Shown here in pieces: positions 3,746 to 27,373 of a stretch of 30,000 bases of DNA. The stretch is taken from positions 1 through 30,000 of the forward strand of contig JAEZZU010000064.1 of assembly GCA_023418355.1 (NCBI GenBank), given 5' to 3'. The notes beneath the pieces are model-generated. The model did no database searches and was not told the origin of the DNA. It saw only the letters and a program-made list of their open reading frames with translations. A program made the translations under genes and the position numbers. The number at the start of each line of letters is the position of its first letter. Within the stretch, counting starts at the first letter, position 1. The stretch is from Pseudomonadota bacterium (GTDB lineage Bacteria > Pseudomonadota > Gammaproteobacteria > Burkholderiales > Burkholderiaceae_C).

Positions 3746-3777
3746 TCTTATTGATTTATAAAGAATTTTTATAAAAG

Positions 3778-3799
3778 AAAGGAGCCATTTGGCTCCTTT
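3778..3799. terminator. Bidirectional terminator between the convergent SSB-like gene and the last tail-module gene
   Basis: Perfect 9-bp hairpin AAAGGAGCC-ATTT-GGCTCCTTT with T-runs after it on the + strand and A-runs before it. It lies between the stops at 3745 (+) and 3802 (-). Confidence 0.75.
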
Positions 3800-3801
3800 T
3801 C

Positions 3802-6474
3802 TTATTTATAATTGGAAGGAATGTTGTTATAATCAGAAAGTTTTGTGCAATACCTGAATAGGTAACTATTAGCTACTCCGCCTAATGTATTTGTTAATGT
3901 TGTTCCTGTTCCTGTAAGATTTGTGCATCCACTAAAGAAAGAAGATAATGCTCCACGTTTACCACAAACAGTTAACCCTGGGTTGTCATTAAAGATCTTA
4001 TTAAAATCTGTAAGTCCTAAACAACCTTGGAATGTAGCTGTTAAAGAGGTCACTTTCGTTGGAATATTATCAAACATTCCTGCTGGAACTTCTGCAAGAG
4101 AGGTGCAATCTTTAAAGGTGTAAGAATATCTTGTAACTTTTGACAGATTCTTAAACAAATCTGAAGGAATAGATGTTAAAGATGTACAACCTTCAAACGT
4201 GCTTGACATTGTTGTCATTGAAGGAAATAAAGCATCACTAAATAATCCTTCAGGGATAGCTGTCAAACTTGTGCAGCCAGAGAAGATACCGCTTATAGAT
4301 GTTCCGGTGTAAGATGTGTTACTAAAACAATCAGAAGTTATTCGTCTTAAGTTAGCACAACCTTTTAAGAATTGTGAGGCTGGGCTTGTAGAATAACTGA
4401 TTCTATTACCGCCCCAAAGTTCTAAAAGACTTGGGTTTGCTTCCATAGACACTTCCACACTATTAACTACTGAAGCACTTGCAAATTCAATAGCCAGTCT
4501 ATATTCTCCTGCTGGATAACTATCCACTGTAGAGAAAGCTTTGTTTCTAAATATTACTTTACTTGAAGGAACTACAACGTCATCCACCTTAACTACAAAG
4601 TTAGCTGGTGTAACAGTACCCGATAAAGTTGGGAACGTAATTGCCCCATCTGCCGAGTGGTTGAAATATCCGTTTAGAACCGTTAAACTACTACTCGGAG
4701 ATGGAGCTAACTCCTTTCCCGCAACAGCGTTCACCGTTAAATAAGAACTGTCAGAAGCGGTAACAACACCTTGATACATAGCTGTGCAACCAATTCTACA
4801 ACCACCATCACCAACACCAGTTATTACACCAGTTGTAGGATCTACTGTAGCAACATTAGGATCTGTAGTTGTATACTCAACAACCATACCAGGTAAGCTT
4901 GCTGCTCCTGTTGGTGTTATCTCTGCTACCATTGTTTGTGTTGTTCCTACATCCATCGCAGATAAGCTAGGGGTGTAAACACTCAATGTTGAAGCATATC
5001 CTCCAGAGGTATCTGATAAAGTTGTTCCTTCAGCGTTTAAGGCTGTCATACCTGCATCAAAACCACCTTCTGCATGGAAAGTCATTAAACCAGTAGATGA
5101 TATTGTCATATTTGCAGGGGCAGAAGAAGTGTATTTAATATTGAAAAGTTTACCTCCTTCTGGGCTAACAGAATGTGTCAACTGTTTAGTTCCACCTACA
5201 ATACAAATTCCTAAAGAATCTGTAGTTAAGCCAGTTGCCAGAATATCGCCCGTAATCACGGAGCTTGCTATTGGTGTGAATTTATTATAGTTTAGACCAC
5301 TATTGAACAGATACGAGGCTTTCCCATCTTTCCAAATACCGGAATAATACATATCCCCGTTATAAACGAAAAAGGTTCCTTGATAACCTAATTGGTTAGT
5401 AACATCCATATTCAGCGTATGAACGCTTGTGAGCTTGTTTATATCCCAAGAACCCACTCCTTCAGGTTTAACTGGTTTTCCCACTTGGAGTGGATCTCCG
5501 CTCGCAGAATCATACCCCAAACCTAAGTTTGCAGTGTAGTTCTTACCAATAGCCCACAAGGAATTATTGATCCCAACGAAAAAAGAGTGGCGGCTTGGTG
5601 GAAACTTCCATGTTGAGAAACCTGCTGCAAAGGTATCCAGTTTAGTGTAGGTTGTTTCTGTATTAGATCTAACATATAAGTAGTTTACTGTACCCGTGCC
5701 ACCGGAGGTATCTCCTACAACTATTGTCTGGGAAACTGTATTGATGTAATCTTTGACATACACTGTTTCAGTAGCGGATATCTTTGCATTGACAAAAGCT
5801 GTTGTTGTGTTATTATTACCTGCTAAACCTTTACTAGCTCCACAAACACGCAAGGTTCCCACATTGTTGACATAAGAGCATTGGTTGTAACCTGCATCAA
5901 AAGCAACTGCTGCACTTGTTATCTGACGAGGAGTAGAAACTTCGTTAGTAGTACTTGCACCTAAACTACCTACTGTGTTTTGACCTGATCCATAAAGAAC
6001 ACCACTATTCATTAACCAGAGAGTGTTGTTATATCCTCCCTTAACCTCTTTAAGATTGGCTAAAGAGATAGTCCCTGTTATTACAGATGGAAAGCTGGTC
6101 CAAGTAGTTACACATGCGTCCGTACCACCTGCTGCTATAGATCCTACCAACCCTGCTGTCAATCCTGAATATTGCCATCCCCCACTGTTAGTTTTAATAA
6201 CAAAACAACGATCTGCGGTAAACACATCCGCTACTACAGTAGAAGCTAAGTGGAAATTATTGAATCGTGCACTACGAGTTCCATCTGCAATCTCACCAAA
6301 GAGGTTTGCGCCTTGAGTAAACAATCTACCATCATTAAGCAAAATTGCTAAACTGTTGTTAGAATTACCAGCGTTATCTGGGTAATCTAAAGTGATTACT
6401 TTTTTAACAATACCTGCTGGCAGAGGAACGACACCAGTGCTGGTCATAATAGTAAATATTGGAATTGGAAACAT
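3802..6474 (-). CDS. Large tail-associated or adhesin-like protein: RCC1-like beta-propeller repeats + two Ig-like (Big_2-type) domains + C-terminal DUF285/BspA-type leucine-rich repeats
   Basis: GGAGGG RBS. About six or seven repeats recur at a period of about 50 aa in aa 45-390, for example LFTQGANLFGEIADG, LYGSGQNTVGSLGAS, RVCGASKGLAGNN and WAIGKNYTANLGLGY. A Big_2-like segment reads TTDPNVATVDPTTGVITGVGDGGCRIGCTA. From aa 700-890 there are at least six F-x-GC-T-S-L-T-x-I/V-P-x-x-L/M-F units, including FSGCTSLTAIPEGLF, FEGCTSLTSIPSDLF and FKDCTSLAEVPAGMF. Confidence 0.7.
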   Translation of the reverse strand: MFPIPIFTIMTSTGVVPLPAGIVKKVITLDYPDNAGNSNNSLAILLNDGRLFTQGANLFGEIADGTRSARFNNFHLASTVVADVFTADRCFVIKTNSGGWQYSGLTAGLVGSIAAGGTDACVTTWTSFPSVITGTISLANLKEVKGGYNNTLWLMNSGVLYGSGQNTVGSLGASTTNEVSTPRQITSAAVAFDAGYNQCSYVNNVGTLRVCGASKGLAGNNNTTTAFVNAKISATETVYVKDYINTVSQTIVVGDTSGGTGTVNYLYVRSNTETTYTKLDTFAAGFSTWKFPPSRHSFFVGINNSLWAIGKNYTANLGLGYDSASGDPLQVGKPVKPEGVGSWDINKLTSVHTLNMDVTNQLGYQGTFFVYNGDMYYSGIWKDGKASYLFNSGLNYNKFTPIASSVITGDILATGLTTDSLGICIVGGTKQLTHSVSPEGGKLFNIKYTSSAPANMTISSTGLMTFHAEGGFDAGMTALNAEGTTLSDTSGGYASTLSVYTPSLSAMDVGTTQTMVAEITPTGAASLPGMVVEYTTTDPNVATVDPTTGVITGVGDGGCRIGCTAMYQGVVTASDSSYLTVNAVAGKELAPSPSSSLTVLNGYFNHSADGAITFPTLSGTVTPANFVVKVDDVVVPSSKVIFRNKAFSTVDSYPAGEYRLAIEFASASVVNSVEVSMEANPSLLELWGGNRISYSTSPASQFLKGCANLRRITSDCFSNTSYTGTSISGIFSGCTSLTAIPEGLFSDALFPSMTTMSSTFEGCTSLTSIPSDLFKNLSKVTRYSYTFKDCTSLAEVPAGMFDNIPTKVTSLTATFQGCLGLTDFNKIFNDNPGLTVCGKRGALSSFFSGCTNLTGTGTTLTNTLGGVANSYLFRYCTKLSDYNNIPSNYK

Positions 6475-6486
6475 TTAAACCCTCCA

Positions 6487-6513
6487 TAAAAAGAAAGCCC
6501 CTTTCGGGGCTTC
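6487..6513 (-). terminator. Rho-independent terminator (minus strand) between the collagen-like fibre gene and the RCC1/Ig/LRR gene
   Basis: On the minus strand: GAAGCCCC-GAAA-GGGGCTTTC followed by TTTTTAT. It starts 3 nt after the upstream stop and ends just before the GGAGGG RBS. Confidence 0.7.
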
Positions 6514-6515
6514 TG

Positions 6516-8540
6516 TTATCGTGTTACAACAACCATGTCCACGATATCACCCACACCAGGATACGTTAATTGCAAAATTGTTACTGCGTTAGCAGTAGTT
6601 GCTATTTCTGTATCATTTAGTGCTCCATAAGACGCATCTAGTGTAACCGTGTGTCCCGTTGTATCTTGAATCAAATAAATCATTGCTGAAAACGCTTTAG
6701 GTTTTGTAGAGCCAGTGACACCAGGCCATGCTCCAACTGTTAAAGCATCGGTTACTGTAACAACATACATATTGGAAGTTCCAGAAGGAGTCCAAGATGC
6801 TCCAGAGTTGCCAGTAGTTGTTTCAAGTTCCATGAAACCTGCTGTAACTCTAGTTGGTGTTATAGCTTCCGTAGGATCTGATCCTGATATTTCAATCCAG
6901 TTCCCATCAGAACGACCATACGTCAAGCCGTCTTGAGGGGCTTCTGGTATACTAGGAAGAGTTCCTATAAGTGTCCAAGTAGAAGAATCTGTTTTCTTGA
7001 ACACTGCTCCAGTAGTAGTATTGAAGGCGTAATCATTGATAACACCGTCTCCTGCGACTGGATTAGTTGTTGCTACAAACCACTGTGCGCCGTCCTTACC
7101 GTTGGTCCCATCAGTACCGTTGGTTCCGTTTGTTCCAGGATCACCCTTATCTCCTTTATCCCCTTTTTCACCTTTGTCGCCTTTAATGCTTCCCATGTCA
7201 ACAAAAGATGCGGAATTGGTGTCTTGATCGTAGGTATAGATGTAAAGATTACTGGTGTCTTCAGTTAAGTAGGCATCACCATAGTTATTATAAACAGGGA
7301 GAGCTTCACTGTTCGGAACATGACCTTTAGCTGTAATTGATGTTCCTCCAAGACTGCCAACATTCATCCATTCTGTAGCACCTTGAACCCAAACATACAA
7401 ATCATTATTAATTTTATATGCATCACCTACTTCTCCAGTAGGAGGAAGTTCAGCTTCACTGTTCAGAACCCCGATAATCTCTAAGCCTGATCCTGTTGCA
7501 CCCACTGGTCCTTGTGGACCTAGTTCACCTTGTGGACCTCGCTCTCCTTGATCACCCTTGTCTCCTTTTGGACCTTTAAGTGAGGCAATAAAATCTACTT
7601 CTGTCCCTTCATTACCAGCATCCAGCCAACTTTGATATGCAGATTTCCCTTCATCTCCATCTGTGCCATCTAGACCGTCTTTTCCTGCCTCGCCTTGTGG
7701 ACCTTGAGGACCAACAATATTACCCATGTTGACCCAAGCTGTCCCATTAGAGACATAAAGATTACCATTGATAGAATAAGCTTGGCTTACGTTTTCAGAG
7801 TTAGGTTGTGGTAAGTTACTTGTAGAAGGCAAATCTCCACGATAATCAAAACCGTTGGCGTTAACACCAGGTGCTCCCTGTGGCCCTGTAGGACCAACAT
7901 CGCCTTTATCACCTTTTATAGAGGTAAGAAAATCATAAACAGATCCTGTATTACCATCTGCCAACCATACCTCGTAAGCTGATTTACCTTCTGGCCCAAG
8001 AGAAGAAATAAGTTTCCAAACAGAACCATCCCAAGCGTAGATTACATCACCTACGATATAACCATCCCCTGCAACGTTACCTGTGGATGGTAGTTCACTA
8101 GTGCTTGCTAATGATCCTTTAATATTAAGTTGAGCACCAGTATCCCCTTTCAAAGAAGCAAGCCATTGTGCTTCTGTTCCAACAAAACCATTATCAAGTG
8201 CGATCTGATAAGCCGATTTACCAGCTTCAGGTATTGTTTCCGACAGATCATCAATCTGTTGCTGCATTGCCGTAAACTTGGCATTGATAATTGCTATATC
8301 ATCAGCGGTCCCAACATTTTGCCATGCAAGGGAAGAAACACCACCTGTGGTGGCTGGCGTAGAGTTTGCTGGAACCACTTTAGGAAAAGTTCCTTTCCAT
8401 TGGTAATAATTCCCTTCTGCTGCTAACAGCAAAACTTCACGGGAATTACGTAATGTAAAACCTGCCTCAAAGCTGCGACGTTTTCGATAAGTAGCTTCTA
8501 CCAGATCGGCTATCGCACTATTAGGTCTTGTTAAATTCAT
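6516..8540 (-). CDS. Tail fibre protein with four collagen-like Gly-X-Y tracts and a repeated module architecture
   Basis: AGGAGAG RBS. The GXY runs are GDKGDVGPTGPQGAPG, GPQGPQGEAGKDGLDGTDGDEG, GPKGDKGDQGERGPQGELGPQGPVGATG and GDKGEKGDKGDKGDPGTNGTNGTDGTNGKDG. A GKSAY-x-x-WL...F-x-x-S-L/I-KG motif occurs three times. Confidence 0.85.
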   Translation of the reverse strand: MNLTRPNSAIADLVEATYRKRRSFEAGFTLRNSREVLLLAAEGNYYQWKGTFPKVVPANSTPATTGGVSSLAWQNVGTADDIAIINAKFTAMQQQIDDLSETIPEAGKSAYQIALDNGFVGTEAQWLASLKGDTGAQLNIKGSLASTSELPSTGNVAGDGYIVGDVIYAWDGSVWKLISSLGPEGKSAYEVWLADGNTGSVYDFLTSIKGDKGDVGPTGPQGAPGVNANGFDYRGDLPSTSNLPQPNSENVSQAYSINGNLYVSNGTAWVNMGNIVGPQGPQGEAGKDGLDGTDGDEGKSAYQSWLDAGNEGTEVDFIASLKGPKGDKGDQGERGPQGELGPQGPVGATGSGLEIIGVLNSEAELPPTGEVGDAYKINNDLYVWVQGATEWMNVGSLGGTSITAKGHVPNSEALPVYNNYGDAYLTEDTSNLYIYTYDQDTNSASFVDMGSIKGDKGEKGDKGDKGDPGTNGTNGTDGTNGKDGAQWFVATTNPVAGDGVINDYAFNTTTGAVFKKTDSSTWTLIGTLPSIPEAPQDGLTYGRSDGNWIEISGSDPTEAITPTRVTAGFMELETTTGNSGASWTPSGTSNMYVVTVTDALTVGAWPGVTGSTKPKAFSAMIYLIQDTTGHTVTLDASYGALNDTEIATTANAVTILQLTYPGVGDIVDMVVVTR
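7089..7916 (-). repeat. Coding repeat region: collagen-like GXY tracts (7866-7916, 7647-7712, 7488-7577, 7089-7184) interleaved with repeated globular modules
   Basis: Read directly from the translation of 6516..8540. The triplet-periodic GGN-NNN-NNN DNA is visible on the minus strand. Confidence 0.85.
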
Positions 8541-8601: not shown

Positions 8602-11600
8602 TTAGGTTGTTGGCACATCTACTACTGGCGTTGGGCGAATAACCGCAGTATTACCTACAGAAACATTACTGGAATCATTAGGTATGGTTTTAATTCTAAC
8701 TCCAGCACTTGTAGGCGTTACAATTGGATCTGCAATGTCTATTTTAACTGGGTTAGTCCACGTATCATTATCTTGATAAGGTGCACGAGTAATAACTGTG
8801 TCCAAATCTGCTCCACCTACGCCAGCACCAGGAATACGAATACGTGTCCCTGCTGACAGAGGGTAATGATACAACCAAGAAGCATTTGTTGCTGTCCCGT
8901 TAGGAGTCAAGTTCTGTGTCAGGAAGGTATCTCCTGCCTGTGTAGCTCGAATACCGAAAGCTGGGATATCTGGAATATATGCCCCACTTGTTGTTACAAG
9001 GAAGAACGTATTATCCGCCTTGACTATCATATCACCTTTGTCAAACTCTTTCCCTGTTGGGAAATGCATTCCATCAATGTTTCGACTAGGATTAGGCTCT
9101 AAGTAATAAACTTTGCCCGTTGTCCCTACAATAGCTCCAATACCACCTGCGATATTGGTATACATATTAGCTTCAACATTACAGTTGACACGATGAATAT
9201 CCGAGTAACGGCAACGGCTCCACTGTGGACGACCAGTAACCATCGTCTTGCCATCTGGGTAACAGTTTACGTTAACCATTTCAAGAACAGATTTTTCTCT
9301 ACGGAAGAATCCATCATAAAATGTCCCTGGACCAGATTCAGGTTGACCAACACAATCGAAGATATTACAGGTGATGTTAGACATTGAAAGCCAAGAAGCT
9401 ACACCGAACAACTGCAACGCAGCACAACGGATATTCTCAAAGCTGACTCTGTTTTCATAACCTGGCCCAGCGGAAACTCCTGCAAAAACACGCCCAGTTT
9501 TGGTGTGAATGTTACGAACAGAATAGTTAAAGCATGGGTTTGAAGGTCTACCCTGTGCCGGAACTACCGGATTACCCTCTTCGTCCAGAACTGCGTTAGT
9601 TCCCCACTCCAAATAAATCATACGGATATTACTTGCAAGTGTGCTACCGTCTGTTTTAGGCTCTCCATAAACACCATCAATCGTAAAATCTTTACTTCCA
9701 TACATTACAACTGCGCCAGTTGCCAAACCTGTCCCAACAGATACGGTTTGATCTGGATCACCATGAATGTTTTCGATAGAGATATTACGACCAACTTCTA
9801 CGTGGACAATCTGACGGCAACGTTTTGCAAAAACGTTACGAATTGTAATATTCTTACAATATTGATCATCAGGGATTCCGTAACCATATGGTCCTTTACC
9901 AGCTACACCAATACCGATACCCCAGTTGGACAGAGGAATAGGAGCATTAGTCCCATCGATATTAGACAGGTAAATATTCTCAATCACACAACCATCGTCA
10001 TAATGTTTATTGATGACGTTCAGTTCTATTGCATCACCTTGCATGTCCATGAAGGTAAGGTTACGGAAGACACCACGTGTTACTGGTTCCCCTGTTCCTT
10101 GTTGAAGGATGCCATACAACCCGTTTTTAAAAGTACAGTTATCAATTTCAAAAGTACCTGATATTGGGTTGCCTTGGAATACCAAGCTACCAACTTGACC
10201 TGCGCGAGGAGCACCGTCCCACAAACAATCGAACATGCGCACAGCACCACCCCAATACATAACACGAGAGTTACGGAAAGTTGTGCCTTCTACCGTAGCA
10301 TTTTGCACACGATAGTCGCGTTGACCACGGAACACACCCCCACGCAAAGTGATACCTTGAATATCAAAAGAGCTTGTCGTGAAAGTCATATCGCAACCGT
10401 AAGCATCGAGAATCTTACTTTTCGAAGCTTTTGCTGCTAACAGTGCCGCCTGGAAAGCTGCTTCTGGTGTGGTATAGGTAGTTGTATTGTTAGCAAATTC
10501 TGACAAGTAGACAACATCGAATAAATCGTTGTATGTTCCACCACGAGGGGTTAACAGTCCTTCCGTATTAGTTAGAACCCATGCGTTTGGACCTAATCCA
10601 CCGCTTGTCTCCAATGTATCAGAAGCCAAAATACTTTTTGGTAAACTTCCAGCCCAACGATAACGACCAGCACCACGTCCAATCGTCTGATTTTTAGCTG
10701 TCAGAGTTACATTATTACCAAAGCTTGTAGGCAAATGAACAAACTGTCCACGTTCAACAGCTAGTGCAGAAAGATCTACAGACCCTCCAGAATAAGTCAT
10801 TACTCCAGAAACAGACAAAGATGTTAAAGTTCCTGTGATGTTAGGAGGTAATGTGTAGGAAGACTGTGCTACCGGATCATACAGAGCTTTAATCCCTGTT
10901 AACGATTGACCTGCTGTTGCGTAAGCCACCTCATCATCTAACAAACCATATTTACGAGCAATAGTTTGCAGAGGGACTTTATCCATGCTTTCTGTTAGTT
11001 CTTCCGTTTTTGTTTCTAAACTAACAAGACGGTTCTCTAGATTAGGATCTGTATCTGCTGAAGCTACGATTTTACCAATATAAGCGAAAAGCTTGTTTGG
11101 CAGTCCTGTTGCAGGATCGTGTCCCAAAGGTTCAGATAAGATGATCTTACTATCTTCTATACGGAAAGCTTCCCCCAGAACCTGAATAACACCATTGATC
11201 GTAACAATAGCACTATCAAAGATGTAAGGAGGACTGATTACTGTTTCATAACCAGTTGCACCAGAATATACCCAAGGTGTGACTTCTGTTGCCAATTGTT
11301 CTGTCTTCAATCCCCACAATACCCAGTTGTTATCTCCTACTGGAGTACCTTGCATAGGGATTGGGTTTACCAATGTAGCATTAGGAGCATAATAATAACC
11401 GCTCAATACCCCATTCTGAAAATAACGTAGTTGGTTAAAAACCGTTTCATTTGTGCCTTGCGCCCAATCCAATGGGCTTTTAAAGAAAAAGTTATCAACA
11501 AGGGCTTTTCTCAGGGTTGGTATCAACCCTGATTCTGTCTCAATACTTTCTGTCGCACTTCCATTAATAACATCATGAAGTTGATTAGACGAGAAAATAA

Positions 11601-11655
11601 CCAGATCTACGCCCTGTTCAAGAGACGTTGCTGGATACGTTGGGAATGTTGCCAT
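8602..11655 (-). CDS. Tailspike protein with a right-handed parallel beta-helix (pectate-lyase-fold-like), putative polysaccharide depolymerase
   Basis: AAGGGG RBS. The central region carries serial beta-helix-type rungs: VFRNLTFMDMQGDAIELN, VIENIYLSNIDG, ITIRNVFAKRCRQIVHVEVGRNISIENIHG, YSVRNIHTKTG, VSFENIRCAAL, MSNITCNIFDC and IHRVNCNVEAN. Its size and position in the fibre cluster fit this call. Confidence 0.65.
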   Translation of the reverse strand: MATFPTYPATSLEQGVDLVIFSSNQLHDVINGSATESIETESGLIPTLRKALVDNFFFKSPLDWAQGTNETVFNQLRYFQNGVLSGYYYAPNATLVNPIPMQGTPVGDNNWVLWGLKTEQLATEVTPWVYSGATGYETVISPPYIFDSAIVTINGVIQVLGEAFRIEDSKIILSEPLGHDPATGLPNKLFAYIGKIVASADTDPNLENRLVSLETKTEELTESMDKVPLQTIARKYGLLDDEVAYATAGQSLTGIKALYDPVAQSSYTLPPNITGTLTSLSVSGVMTYSGGSVDLSALAVERGQFVHLPTSFGNNVTLTAKNQTIGRGAGRYRWAGSLPKSILASDTLETSGGLGPNAWVLTNTEGLLTPRGGTYNDLFDVVYLSEFANNTTTYTTPEAAFQAALLAAKASKSKILDAYGCDMTFTTSSFDIQGITLRGGVFRGQRDYRVQNATVEGTTFRNSRVMYWGGAVRMFDCLWDGAPRAGQVGSLVFQGNPISGTFEIDNCTFKNGLYGILQQGTGEPVTRGVFRNLTFMDMQGDAIELNVINKHYDDGCVIENIYLSNIDGTNAPIPLSNWGIGIGVAGKGPYGYGIPDDQYCKNITIRNVFAKRCRQIVHVEVGRNISIENIHGDPDQTVSVGTGLATGAVVMYGSKDFTIDGVYGEPKTDGSTLASNIRMIYLEWGTNAVLDEEGNPVVPAQGRPSNPCFNYSVRNIHTKTGRVFAGVSAGPGYENRVSFENIRCAALQLFGVASWLSMSNITCNIFDCVGQPESGPGTFYDGFFRREKSVLEMVNVNCYPDGKTMVTGRPQWSRCRYSDIHRVNCNVEANMYTNIAGGIGAIVGTTGKVYYLEPNPSRNIDGMHFPTGKEFDKGDMIVKADNTFFLVTTSGAYIPDIPAFGIRATQAGDTFLTQNLTPNGTATNASWLYHYPLSAGTRIRIPGAGVGGADLDTVITRAPYQDNDTWTNPVKIDIADPIVTPTSAGVRIKTIPNDSSNVSVGNTAVIRPTPVVDVPTT

Positions 11656-27247: not shown

Positions 27248-27270
27248 GATAACCTCGTAGTAATGATAAT

Positions 27271-27296
27271 GCCAAAAGGAAGATGCAAGATCTTCC
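27271..27296 (-). promoter_or_regulatory. 5'-proximal stem-loop directly downstream of the candidate promoter (GGAAGAT-CTTGC-ATCTTCC + TTTTGG)
   Basis: Perfect 7-bp stem at 27278-27296 followed by T4 on the minus strand. It begins about 11 nt after the -10 hexamer and ends about 24 nt before the RBS of 26546..27247. Confidence 0.45.
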
Positions 27297-27306
27297 CATA
27301 TTGATT

Positions 27307-27336
27307 ATTGTAACACATATAGAAACTTCGTGTCAA
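27307..27336 (-). promoter_or_regulatory. Near-consensus sigma70-type promoter on the minus strand: -35 TTGACA, 18-nt spacer, extended -10 TGTTACAAT
   Basis: The minus strand reads TCCC-TTGACA-CGAAGTTTCTATATGTGT-TACAAT-AATCAA. The -35 is a 6/6 match, the -10 a 5/6 match, and the TGn extension is present. Confidence 0.6.
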
Positions 27337-27344
27337 GGGAAACG

Positions 27345-27366
27345 AAAAAACCCCGCCGAAGCGAGG
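27345..27366 (-). terminator. Rho-independent terminator after the tape measure gene
   Basis: On the minus strand: CCTCGC-TTCG-GCGGGG (UUCG tetraloop; one G-U pair that would be a C-A mismatch on the + strand) followed by TTTTTT. It starts 8 nt after the stop. Confidence 0.75.
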
Positions 27367-27373
27367 TATTTTA

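Follow-up and report, generated by a model that had tools for sequence, protein, structure and literature searches.

Which part of a phage particle, if any, is encoded by the 890-amino-acid (aa) open reading frame (ORF) that closes the baseplate and fibre operon in contig JAEZZU010000064.1, and what would it bind? We analysed the first 30,000 nucleotides (nt) of this contig (GenBank assembly GCA_023418355.1), hereafter the window. The region is Phapecoctavirus DNA, 98.7% identical in nucleotide sequence to Escherichia phage ESCO5; ∼60 further Phapecoctavirus genomes (Stephanstirmvirinae) match the region at 96-98% identity. The 890-aa ORF had been called in a first-pass annotation made from the sequence, and it is indeed present on the minus strand at 3802..6474. 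The gene is not new. Its product matches PHROG 11922 (‘tail protein’) over its full length (E=0), the ESCO5 orthologue gp226 is recorded as ‘tail protein’, and a 2025 comparative paper uses the name ‘TfpM1 (890 or 891 aa)’ (PMC12695924). That paper describes TfpM1 as absent from Justusliebigvirus and variable at its C-terminus, and analyses neither its domains nor its function. Catalogues thus list a tail protein that is uncharacterised. The first-pass annotation had called its architecture unfamiliar; the catalogue entries qualify that view, and searches of the accessible literature for a characterised phage receptor-binding protein built in this way (leucine-rich repeat (LRR)/BspA or RCC1-like propeller) turned up none. 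With moderate confidence, we read the protein as an accessory virion adhesin, that is, a side receptor-binding protein within the multivalent tail apparatus that phAPEC8-like phages carry. The gene and the parts of its product are laid out as follows.

3802..6474, minus strand: gene for the 890-aa modular tail-module protein (ESCO5 gp226, ‘TfpM1’, PHROG 11922 homologue); ORF with ATG start
6415..6474, minus strand: N-terminal peptide, aa 1-20, MFPIPIFTIMTSTGVVPLPA; proposed virion-anchoring peptide, from conservation
5260..6414, minus strand: predicted seven-bladed RCC1-like beta-propeller, aa ∼21-405 (Pfam, AlphaFold2, Foldseek, PHROG 4219)
4723..5247, minus strand: two Big_2 immunoglobulin (Ig)-like domains, aa ∼410-584 (Pfam, AlphaFold2)
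3807..4723, minus strand: exchangeable distal cassette, allele type A, aa 585-890 (306 aa; blastn against ESCO13 and protein identity)
4420..4686, minus strand: predicted beta-sandwich (PKD-like), aa ∼597-685 (AlphaFold2 strands E13-101 of the module model; hhalign)
3805..4386, minus strand: predicted BspA/LRR-class solenoid, aa ∼697-890, with seven F-x-x-C-x-x-L units (units, AlphaFold2, homologues)

The distal cassette is where close relatives part company. In ESCO13 and phAPEC8 the gene specifies an 891-aa allele that is 98% identical to the window protein over aa 1-584 and unrelated beyond, and DNA homology to ESCO13 stops at window position 4724 and resumes at 3806 (blastn). What is exchanged is the stretch aa 585-890 rather than the gene as a whole. 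An accessory adhesin or receptor-binding cassette had been proposed for the gene between its two flanking terminators. The allele swapping and the alternative tips fit this proposal; the cassette itself, however, is the C-terminal 306 aa. Clustering the C-terminal extensions of 27 homologues gave four tip families and a ‘none’ state.

Type A (this window): beta-sandwich and LRR solenoid, both predicted
Type B (ESCO13, phAPEC8): GTA_spike_fiber (NCBIfam NF048003), 73.7 bits against a cut-off of 36
Type C (P0138 group): PKD-like sandwich and canonical DUF285/PARCEL repeats (Mbov_0838 PARCEL lipoprotein family, 1.9e-29)
Type D (P0137): no match
None (Seunavirus): ∼570 aa, tipless

Tip type is discordant with the N-terminal phylogeny. 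Types A and B both occur within N-terminal pairs of 97-99%, 81% and 76% identity, and some type A tips are ∼90% conserved against 76% for the N-terminal parts. At the level of sequence, these comparisons demonstrate that phages which are otherwise nearly identical exchange the tip through recombination at the Ig/linker boundary. Both alleles are widespread: ∼36 phage records carry a type A tip and ∼39 carry a type B tip at at least 90% identity, the phapecoctaviruses among the latter including phAPEC8. Domains related to type B are also found in tail proteins of Kagunavirus, RcapMu and cyanophages; the window allele has no match to GTA_spike_fiber (NF048003).

The nearest homologues outside the phapecoctaviruses are metagenomic and include one Phocaeicola ‘BspA family’ protein and proteins of uncultivated phages. 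An origin of the type A cassette from an E. coli prophage was considered and is unsupported, because the cassette has no DNA match among 5,426 complete E. coli genomes. In GC content the cassette (0.374) is close to the window (0.396). The best homologue of the LRR tip outside coliphages is a 528-aa protein (P0004; L014:10001-11587) on a phage contig from Logan SRR29078144; it lies among the structural genes of this uncultivated phage, flanked by those for a 734-aa protein and a 1999-aa PhageMin_Tail protein. Separately, the 1008-aa ‘tail protein I’ of Klebsiella phage ST16-OXA48phi5.4 (a P2-like Reipivirus; L008:1523-4549) has 7-8 stretches resembling the type A LRR tip and appears to be another BspA-class solenoid grafted onto a phage baseplate protein.

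What, then, carries the tip? The first-pass annotation had described a three-part protein of about six or seven RCC1-like blades, two Ig-like Big_2 segments and at least six C-terminal F-x-GC-type units. Its propeller/Ig/LRR order stands, and AlphaFold2 returned folds of all three types; the C-terminal part, however, consists of two domains, and an N-terminal peptide had been overlooked. Pfam RCC1 (PF00415) scores 24.2 bits against a cut-off of 21.7 for one repeat only, and WD40_RLD (PF25390) has an E-value of 4.8e-11 but a score of 43 bits, below its cut-off of 150. The AlphaFold2 model of aa 1-601 (43 homologues; predicted local distance difference test (pLDDT) 88.7) places ∼26 strands across aa 23-402. 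Foldseek matched this model to 7-bladed RCC1-like propellers, with UVR8 first (E 6.7e-17) and then the HERC2 RLD, RPGR and RCC1. Target-normalised template modelling (TM) scores of the predicted structure against such propellers are 0.6-0.7 (UVR8 ∼0.7). The 890-aa protein also matches the RCC1-type PHROG 4219 at 8.3e-33. The first domain is accordingly modelled as a seven-bladed RCC1-like propeller with four strands to the blade. In the segment that follows, Big_2 (PF02368) scores 35 bits against a gathering score of 22.8 in two stretches within aa 410-584, and the model has two Ig-like sandwiches at aa 410-582 with strand pLDDT >90. This Ig region is 63% identical to phi92 gp152.

In front of the propeller lies a part of the protein that is nearly always kept. 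An adaptor motif had been reported as missing, which is probably wrong given a conserved N-terminal M-x-P-I/F-P peptide. M1, P3 and P5 are nearly invariant in an alignment of 44 homologues, and of 43 that were aligned, 40 start with M-[FYLI]-P-[IF]-P; of the three that do not, P0144 and P0160 are N-terminal fragments. The M-x-P-I/F-P start is retained in phi92-like, rV5-like, Seunavirus and Certrevirus versions, with or without the propeller. It is not universal, since P0002, P0003 and P0161 begin MLE- and P0001 uses the N-terminus of the neighbouring fibre. Residues 1-19 are disordered in the AlphaFold2 monomer model (pLDDT <50), which puts the peptide outside any globular domain. The peptide (MFPIP...) is a likely virion-docking element, because only two of the versions that are not fragments lack it, while the propeller and the Ig pair are optional. 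The relatives on which this comparison draws are built as follows.

phi92 gp152 (202 aa): peptide and Ig pair, propeller absent
P0159 (459 aa): peptide, Ig pair and type C tip, propeller absent
Certrevirus CR9 (388 aa): peptide and propeller, little more
Seunavirus (∼570 aa): peptide, propeller and Ig, tip absent
rV5-like (1875 aa): first 185 aa in common with the 890-aa protein, then a long chain
P0144 (573 aa; cluster of 12 sequences): propeller joined directly to a type A tip, both Ig domains absent
P0002 and P0003 (494 aa): different N-terminus (MLELL...), Ig pair and type A tip, propeller absent
P0001 (396 aa): approximately the first 75 aa (Tail_spike_N) of the 674-aa fibre fused in frame to aa 567-890

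To judge from these versions, the propeller and the Ig pair are each dispensable parts of the layout. In P0144 the two parts meet at a repeated L-A-T-x-L-T motif. P0001 is encoded on a phapecoctavirus contig in Logan SRR10359460 (L004:8705-9895) that matches window positions 8540 through 3802, and its fusion corresponds to a ∼3.5 kb deletion at an interrupted microhomology, CAAnnTGTTGnnACCGCT. An assembly artefact was rejected for this contig: the junction has interrupted microhomology only and no long shared k-mer.

The phi92 copy is a special case. In the phi92 record (FR775895.2; L005:8956-10618), gp152 (202 aa) and gp153 (295 aa) are pieces of one 628-aa gene, the Justusliebigvirus version, which is intact in Serratia phage KKP_3264 (L017:132-2018). 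Residues 1-198, 273-334 and 354-628 of the intact protein map to three frames in phi92 and residues 199-272 (74 aa) are missing, so either the phi92 copy is disrupted or the record is erroneous. The record annotates gp153 as ‘no RBS, weak statistics’. A reading of gp153 as a mis-stranded single-stranded DNA-binding protein (SSB) was rejected; it is the 3′ fragment of the disrupted gene. The distal part of the 628-aa version has a weak SASA (sialate-acetylesterase) match below cut-off. Because deletion variants exist and the phi92 record has a split gene, the protein is probably dispensable for basic infectivity.

The type A tip was modelled on its own. The AlphaFold2 model of aa 586-890 (100 homologues) has a pLDDT of 91.2 and a predicted TM score of 0.88, and consists of a beta-sandwich followed by a solenoid. 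By hhalign (97% probability) the sandwich is homologous to the DWGDG sandwich of the type C allele. The solenoid contains seven F-x-x-C-x-x-L units, with cysteines at 706, 734, 763, 790, 818, 850 and 876 (spacing 26-32 aa), and the model gives it one short strand per 27-29 aa at pLDDT 95-98. Among 100 tip homologues, LRR_5 is found in 41, DUF285 in 21 and LRR_8 in 15. The family profile, searched against PDB sequences, finds LRRTM (1.5e-33), variable lymphocyte receptors, the BspA-like 4fs7/4gt6 and TpLRR, and the BFVD matches to the tip are phage ‘leucine-rich repeat’ or ‘BspA family’ proteins. Variation among type A tips is concentrated on the short beta-strand before each F-x-x-C, which is the sheet face of the solenoid, and the G-C-T-S-L core is invariant.

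Results on the window protein itself count against an LRR assignment. DUF285 (PF03382) scores 12.8 bits against a cut-off of 25 and PARCEL (TIGR02167) 21.9 against 30; LRR_5 (PF13306) has no match to the window protein at E <= 1 and none to the module at E <= 0.001. Foldseek matches of the tip to solved LRR structures are weak, the best having an E-value of 6e-3 and a low TM. Membership in the LRR class consequently rests on homologues and a metagenome-dominated profile. With the LRR_5, DUF285 and PARCEL cut-offs failed and the solved-structure matches weak, we use the label ‘divergent BspA/LRR-class solenoid’ for what the profiles and the model suggest, rather than DUF285 protein. Of the ‘DUF285/BspA-type LRR’ first suggested, the BspA/LRR class thus survives through the homologues, whereas DUF285 does not; true DUF285/PARCEL repeats belong to type C. 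A further observation on this family concerns annotation: the eukaryotic PHD-1st_NSD zinc-finger model is hit by 34 of the 100 LRR homologues and Zn_ribbon_FGT1_2 by 7, almost certainly spurious products of the periodic Cys/Phe pattern.

The position of the gene ties it to the tail. It closes a baseplate/fibre operon in which tape measure, hub, wedge, short fibre and Tfa, colanidase tailspike and collagen fibre genes come before it, and what else the window holds is typical of a myovirus tail module, with several tail proteins and a lipoprotein. The 674-aa fibre gene lies immediately upstream (6516-8540), and a collagen-containing fibre in the module bears a Tail_spike_N domain. The 890-aa gene is co-oriented with the fibre genes and tightly packed against them, and its terminal position in the operon is syntenic in five genera. 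Its downstream neighbour is a convergent gene annotated as SSB in relatives. In phages nepoznato (L003:3043-3474) and Mt1B1_P17, a gene for a 143-aa endonuclease separates the SSB gene from the 890-aa gene as an insertion; in nepoznato it overlaps the SSB stop codon, and the intergenic region shrinks to the hairpin alone. Elsewhere in the module, the colanidase tailspike (8602-11655, minus strand) has an internal Tail_spike_N at aa 302-361, behind an extra N-terminal region matching a fibre PHROG. This arrangement suggests that the colanidase may act as a docking hub for other appendages.

How is such a gene expressed at the end of the operon? Three elements flank it.

6484..6513, minus strand: terminator-like hairpin GAAGCCCC-GAAA-GGGGCTTT followed by the T-run CTTTTTAT, between the stop codon of the 674-aa fibre gene and the ribosome-binding site (RBS)
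6480..6485, minus strand: Shine-Dalgarno GGAGGG, 5 nt before the ATG, read from the sequence
3777..3800, both strands: bidirectional terminator-like hairpin common to the 890-aa gene and the convergent SSB gene, from the terminator scan

The first-pass annotation had put hairpin terminators at both flanks, with only an RBS between the upstream one and the ATG, and this description is accurate. The upstream hairpin, at 6513..6494 on the minus strand, has 8 pairs (5 G-C), a loop of 4 and the tail CTTTTTATGG; its U-tract (CTTTTTAT) is interrupted, and its predicted stability is -14.5 kcal/mol (z -2.9). From hairpin to ATG there are 20 nt including the RBS GGAGGG, which leaves no room for a promoter. 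The downstream hairpin, at 3777-3800, reaches -17.1 kcal/mol (z -5.5) and -16.4 (z -4.6) on the two strands. It sits just past the recombination boundary, and its stem differs between type A and type B carriers. A generic terminator scan was not enriched overall (9 sites against 8.1 expected), so the significance of the hairpins rests on their position and comparative conservation. The order ‘stop codon, GC-rich hairpin, U-rich tract, GGAGG, ATG(MFPIP...)’ recurs in Phapecoctavirus, Justusliebigvirus, Vequintavirus, Seunavirus and Certrevirus with five different stems. RNAalifold on the upstream hairpin (six sequences compared) gives 7 pairs, 6 of the 7 with compensatory double changes, which indicates that the structure is under selection.

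Transcripts for the 890-aa gene must cross the upstream hairpin, because there is no promoter room before the RBS, and this is compatible with the read-through idea put forward earlier. On our model the gene would be transcribed from upstream, through the conserved hairpin and U-tract directly ahead of its RBS, and the hairpin would most likely attenuate expression relative to the preceding fibre gene. A different role, as a 3′-end stabiliser or processing signal of the fibre mRNA or as generic punctuation, is less likely. Comparable GC-rich hairpins at 8598-8575 (without a U-run), 27367-27350, 16329-16314 and 15907-15876 speak for it, as do the interrupted U-tract and a stem of just 8 bp; against this, the layout of hairpin, U-tract and Shine-Dalgarno is kept in five genera despite complete stem turnover. 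Moreover, a terminator-promoter pair exists at 27248-27373, but no promoter could fit here and expression must pass the hairpin.

The gene is nonetheless not uniquely ‘insulated’, as had been proposed: the hairpins are real, but other operon genes are followed by GC-rich hairpins too. The one at the 3′ end of the colanidase gene (8598-8575, minus strand; AGAGGGGG-ATT-CCCCCTCT) reaches -19.7 kcal/mol and has no U-run, the tape-measure gene ends in a terminator-like hairpin at 27367-27350 (minus strand; z -4.0), and 16329-16314 and 15907-15876 are further intergenic examples. A similar hairpin follows an 830-aa fibre gene in another phage region (L016). Directly after the tape-measure hairpin, inside the tail operon, lies a sigma-70 promoter close to consensus (TTGACA-18-TACAAT, with a TG further upstream; 27336-27307, minus strand). 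The sigma-70 scan as a whole did no better than on shuffled sequence (25 matches against 30 expected) and is not used as evidence.

What would the protein do on the particle? Under the accessory-adhesin reading, the short N-terminal peptide (MFPIP...) would dock it on the virion, the RCC1-like propeller and two Ig domains would serve as body and spacer, and the C-terminal cassette of beta-sandwich and seven-unit BspA-class LRR solenoid would be the ligand-binding tip. The variable beta-strand face of the solenoid may contact a host-surface structure. Tip swaps would then give alternative specificities: LRR, a lectin like the head spike fibre of gene transfer agents (GTAs), PKD plus DUF285, or an esterase-like module. 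The gene lies in the tail-fibre module and encodes a conserved proximal and a variable distal part, both of them hallmarks of receptor-binding proteins. The alternative tips appear to be of polysaccharide-binding or -modifying types, as judged from the GTA spike-fibre domain and the weak SASA esterase-like module.

Published work on relatives provides several points of contact. RCC1-type PHROG 4219 proteins were found by tandem mass spectrometry in virions of the Vequintavirinae phage W70, and the orthologues PVP-SE1 gp040 and rV5 gp28 are listed as shared structural proteins (PMC11370258). In the main text of the rV5 proteomics paper, rV5 gp28 is not among the detected tail proteins, and in the O177 phage paper the term ‘proteomics’ stands for in silico analysis. 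For peptide anchoring, the closest experimentally supported analogy is the head spike fibre of the Rhodobacter capsulatus GTA (RcGTA), which is anchored by its N-terminal residues 2-10 and binds capsular polysaccharide (CPS) with the remainder (PMC10218006). The ‘RCC1’ in the RcGTA paper was set aside as a locus-tag artefact.

A possible phenotype comes from ‘Wecvirus’ phages that are close relatives of one another. Wec179 and Wec186 were checked as type B carriers and Wec188 and Wec190 as type A carriers. The Wec179/Wec186 group lost infectivity on a flhD mutant and the Wec188/Wec190 group on a yhaH mutant. Both groups depend on waaT, and sensitivity returned on complementation (PMC12548472). 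The flhD/yhaH dependence may be a phenotype of the tip cassette.

Several considerations pull against the adhesin reading as a whole. Virion presence, location and binding of the 890-aa protein are inferred from sequence and models, as is attenuation at the upstream hairpin, and the anchor role of the N-terminal peptide is deduced from conservation alone. The correlation between Wec tips and host factors is confounded and only a lead, since TfpL also differs between the two groups (PMC12695924).

The accessory-adhesin reading has a bolder form, in which the protein would represent a distinct adhesin class: a non-trimeric fibre anchored by a peptide of ∼10-20 residues, with all beads optional, a plug-and-play tip, and an LRR tip for a proteinaceous or non-canonical ligand rather than a glycan. 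We hold this form to be rather doubtful. The kinds of fold involved (propeller, Ig, LRR) are usually monomeric, and the Pfam searches and AlphaFold2 models contain no coiled coil, collagen, beta-helix or trimeric fibrous fold, nor is a Tfa or other chaperone gene adjacent. The absence of collagen, beta-helix and a Tfa partner had already been remarked upon, and the next gene is the convergent SSB.

Could the protein instead be a Hoc-like decoration, a dispensable Ig/LRR appendage that attaches the virion to material from the environment or an animal host (mucus glycoproteins, extracellular or biofilm matrix) rather than to an infection-triggering bacterial receptor? The beads-on-a-string layout with Big_2 Ig domains resembles phage Ig decorations, and Ig-decorated phage proteins are non-essential and have been proposed to bind surface carbohydrates weakly (Fraser 2006, as cited in the CB7 paper). 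The 890-aa gene seems dispensable, since it is broken in phi92 and deletion variants exist. In oral and gut bacteria, BspA-type LRR proteins serve as adhesins for host matrix, and the closest homologues outside the phapecoctaviruses are metagenomic and include the Phocaeicola ‘BspA family’ protein. The type B tip is, in addition, homologous to a head spike fibre. However, the gene ends the tail-fibre operon, away from the head genes, and its tip alleles alternate among phages isolated on E. coli and correlate with bacterial host-factor needs. Among the other tips are kinds that act on polysaccharides of bacteria: the GTA spike fibre binds bacterial CPS, and another tip is esterase-like. We consider a decoration role unlikely.

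A conventional, essential trimeric tail fibre or tailspike subunit, forming one of the three lateral fibres on phi92-type particles, is slightly more improbable still. Annotation pipelines do call the product a tail protein or tail fibre, the annotation of its rV5-like counterpart reads ‘lateral tail fiber protein with intimin domain’, and phi92 fibre II is without a gene assignment (PMC13450770). The natural fusion P0001 also puts the tip behind Tail_spike_N. That domain is trimeric in CBA120-type tailspikes. Yet the protein has no coiled coil, collagen, triple beta-helix, intramolecular chaperone or adjacent Tfa gene, and propeller, Ig and LRR are all of kinds that fold as monomers. Whole domains are missing in natural variants, and the phi92 copy is disrupted although phi92 shows three fibres. 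Finally, a non-virion protein that merely sits beside the tail genes, acting inside the cell or after secretion as, for example, a host-takeover factor, is very improbable: RCC1 and LRR folds are classic protein-interaction scaffolds and some RCC1 families are filed by PHROG under ‘DNA, RNA and nucleotide metabolism’, but the gene runs in the same direction as the fibre genes, lies close against them and keeps its place in five genera, its RCC1-type relatives are present in W70 virions, its tips recur in tail and baseplate proteins elsewhere among phages, and the PHROG ‘chromosome condensation’ label is a name transfer.

The accessory-adhesin reading matters beyond this locus. A broad host range makes the phAPEC8-, phi92- and rV5-like myoviruses popular candidates for therapy, and the assignment of genes and ligands to their appendages is incomplete (BASEL paper; phi92 cryo-EM, PMC13450770). 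A polymorphic gene with a clean recombination boundary at residue 584 is a candidate determinant of host range, and tips could readily be swapped there. Type A and B tips that track yhaH and flhD needs in near-isogenic Wec phages offer a directly testable lead. BspA-class LRR modules recur in the structural regions of uncultivated phages, and a cultured E. coli phage that carries one offers a way to learn their role. If the distinct-class form were true, the tip would be the first LRR-based receptor-binding module acting in a cultured coliphage and a scaffold for host-range engineering.

Set against known systems, the nearest is the gene itself. TfpM1 of Phapecoctavirus (ESCO5 gp226, tuntematon, phAPEC8) is the same gene, and type A carriers share 97-99% full-length identity, the same synteny and the flanking hairpins; its entries are pipeline annotations, and phAPEC8 and ESCO13 bear the unrelated type B tip. 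The 890-aa gene also belongs to the same genomic module as the multivalent ‘Swiss-army-knife’ adsorption apparatus of phi92/rV5-like phages and the branched tailspike complexes (CBA120-type Tail_spike_N anchors). Its neighbours carry Tail_spike_N and colanidase, and the syntenic rV5-like gene has its N-terminal 185 aa in common with it. The 890-aa protein itself has neither Tail_spike_N nor a trimeric fibre or spike fold.

Other systems resemble single parts. With the RcGTA head spike fibre (rcc01080; NF048003) the protein has in common a short N-terminal peptide as anchor (putative in the 890-aa protein) and a beta-rich body, CPS-binding in RcGTA, and the domain itself is present in the type B allele; the RcGTA fibre, however, is located on the head and has no propeller or Ig domains, and the window tip is an LRR solenoid. 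The W70 virion proteins W70_237-239 (PHROG 4219) share the RCC1-type propeller, but they are stand-alone propellers of 40-43 kDa encoded elsewhere in the genome. Their authors proposed a DNA-packaging role from the RCC1 name (PMC11370258). The F-x-G-C-T-S-L-T-x-I-P-x-x-L-F repeat, with a period of ∼28 aa, recalls the BspA/LRR_5 and DUF285 (PARCEL) surface proteins of Bacteroidota, Firmicutes and Mollicutes. In contrast to these, the 890-aa protein falls below the curated cut-offs, has seven units only, is phage-borne and lacks a signal peptide, lipobox or cell-wall anchor context. LRR-bearing phage proteins are common in metagenomic annotations, and looser literature searches gave only the recently predicted LRR domains of Goslar DUF7941 proteins. 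T4 Hoc is a monomeric string of Ig domains. It and other Ig-decorated proteins share such strings with the 890-aa protein, but Hoc is a capsid decoration with no propeller, LRR or allelic tip cassette. Overall, a conserved proximal part joined to an exchangeable distal module is well known for phage adhesins; what seems unusual here, on the predicted folds, is the combination of monomer-type domains, anchoring by a short peptide, an RCC1-like propeller as body, and a BspA-class LRR as interchangeable tip.

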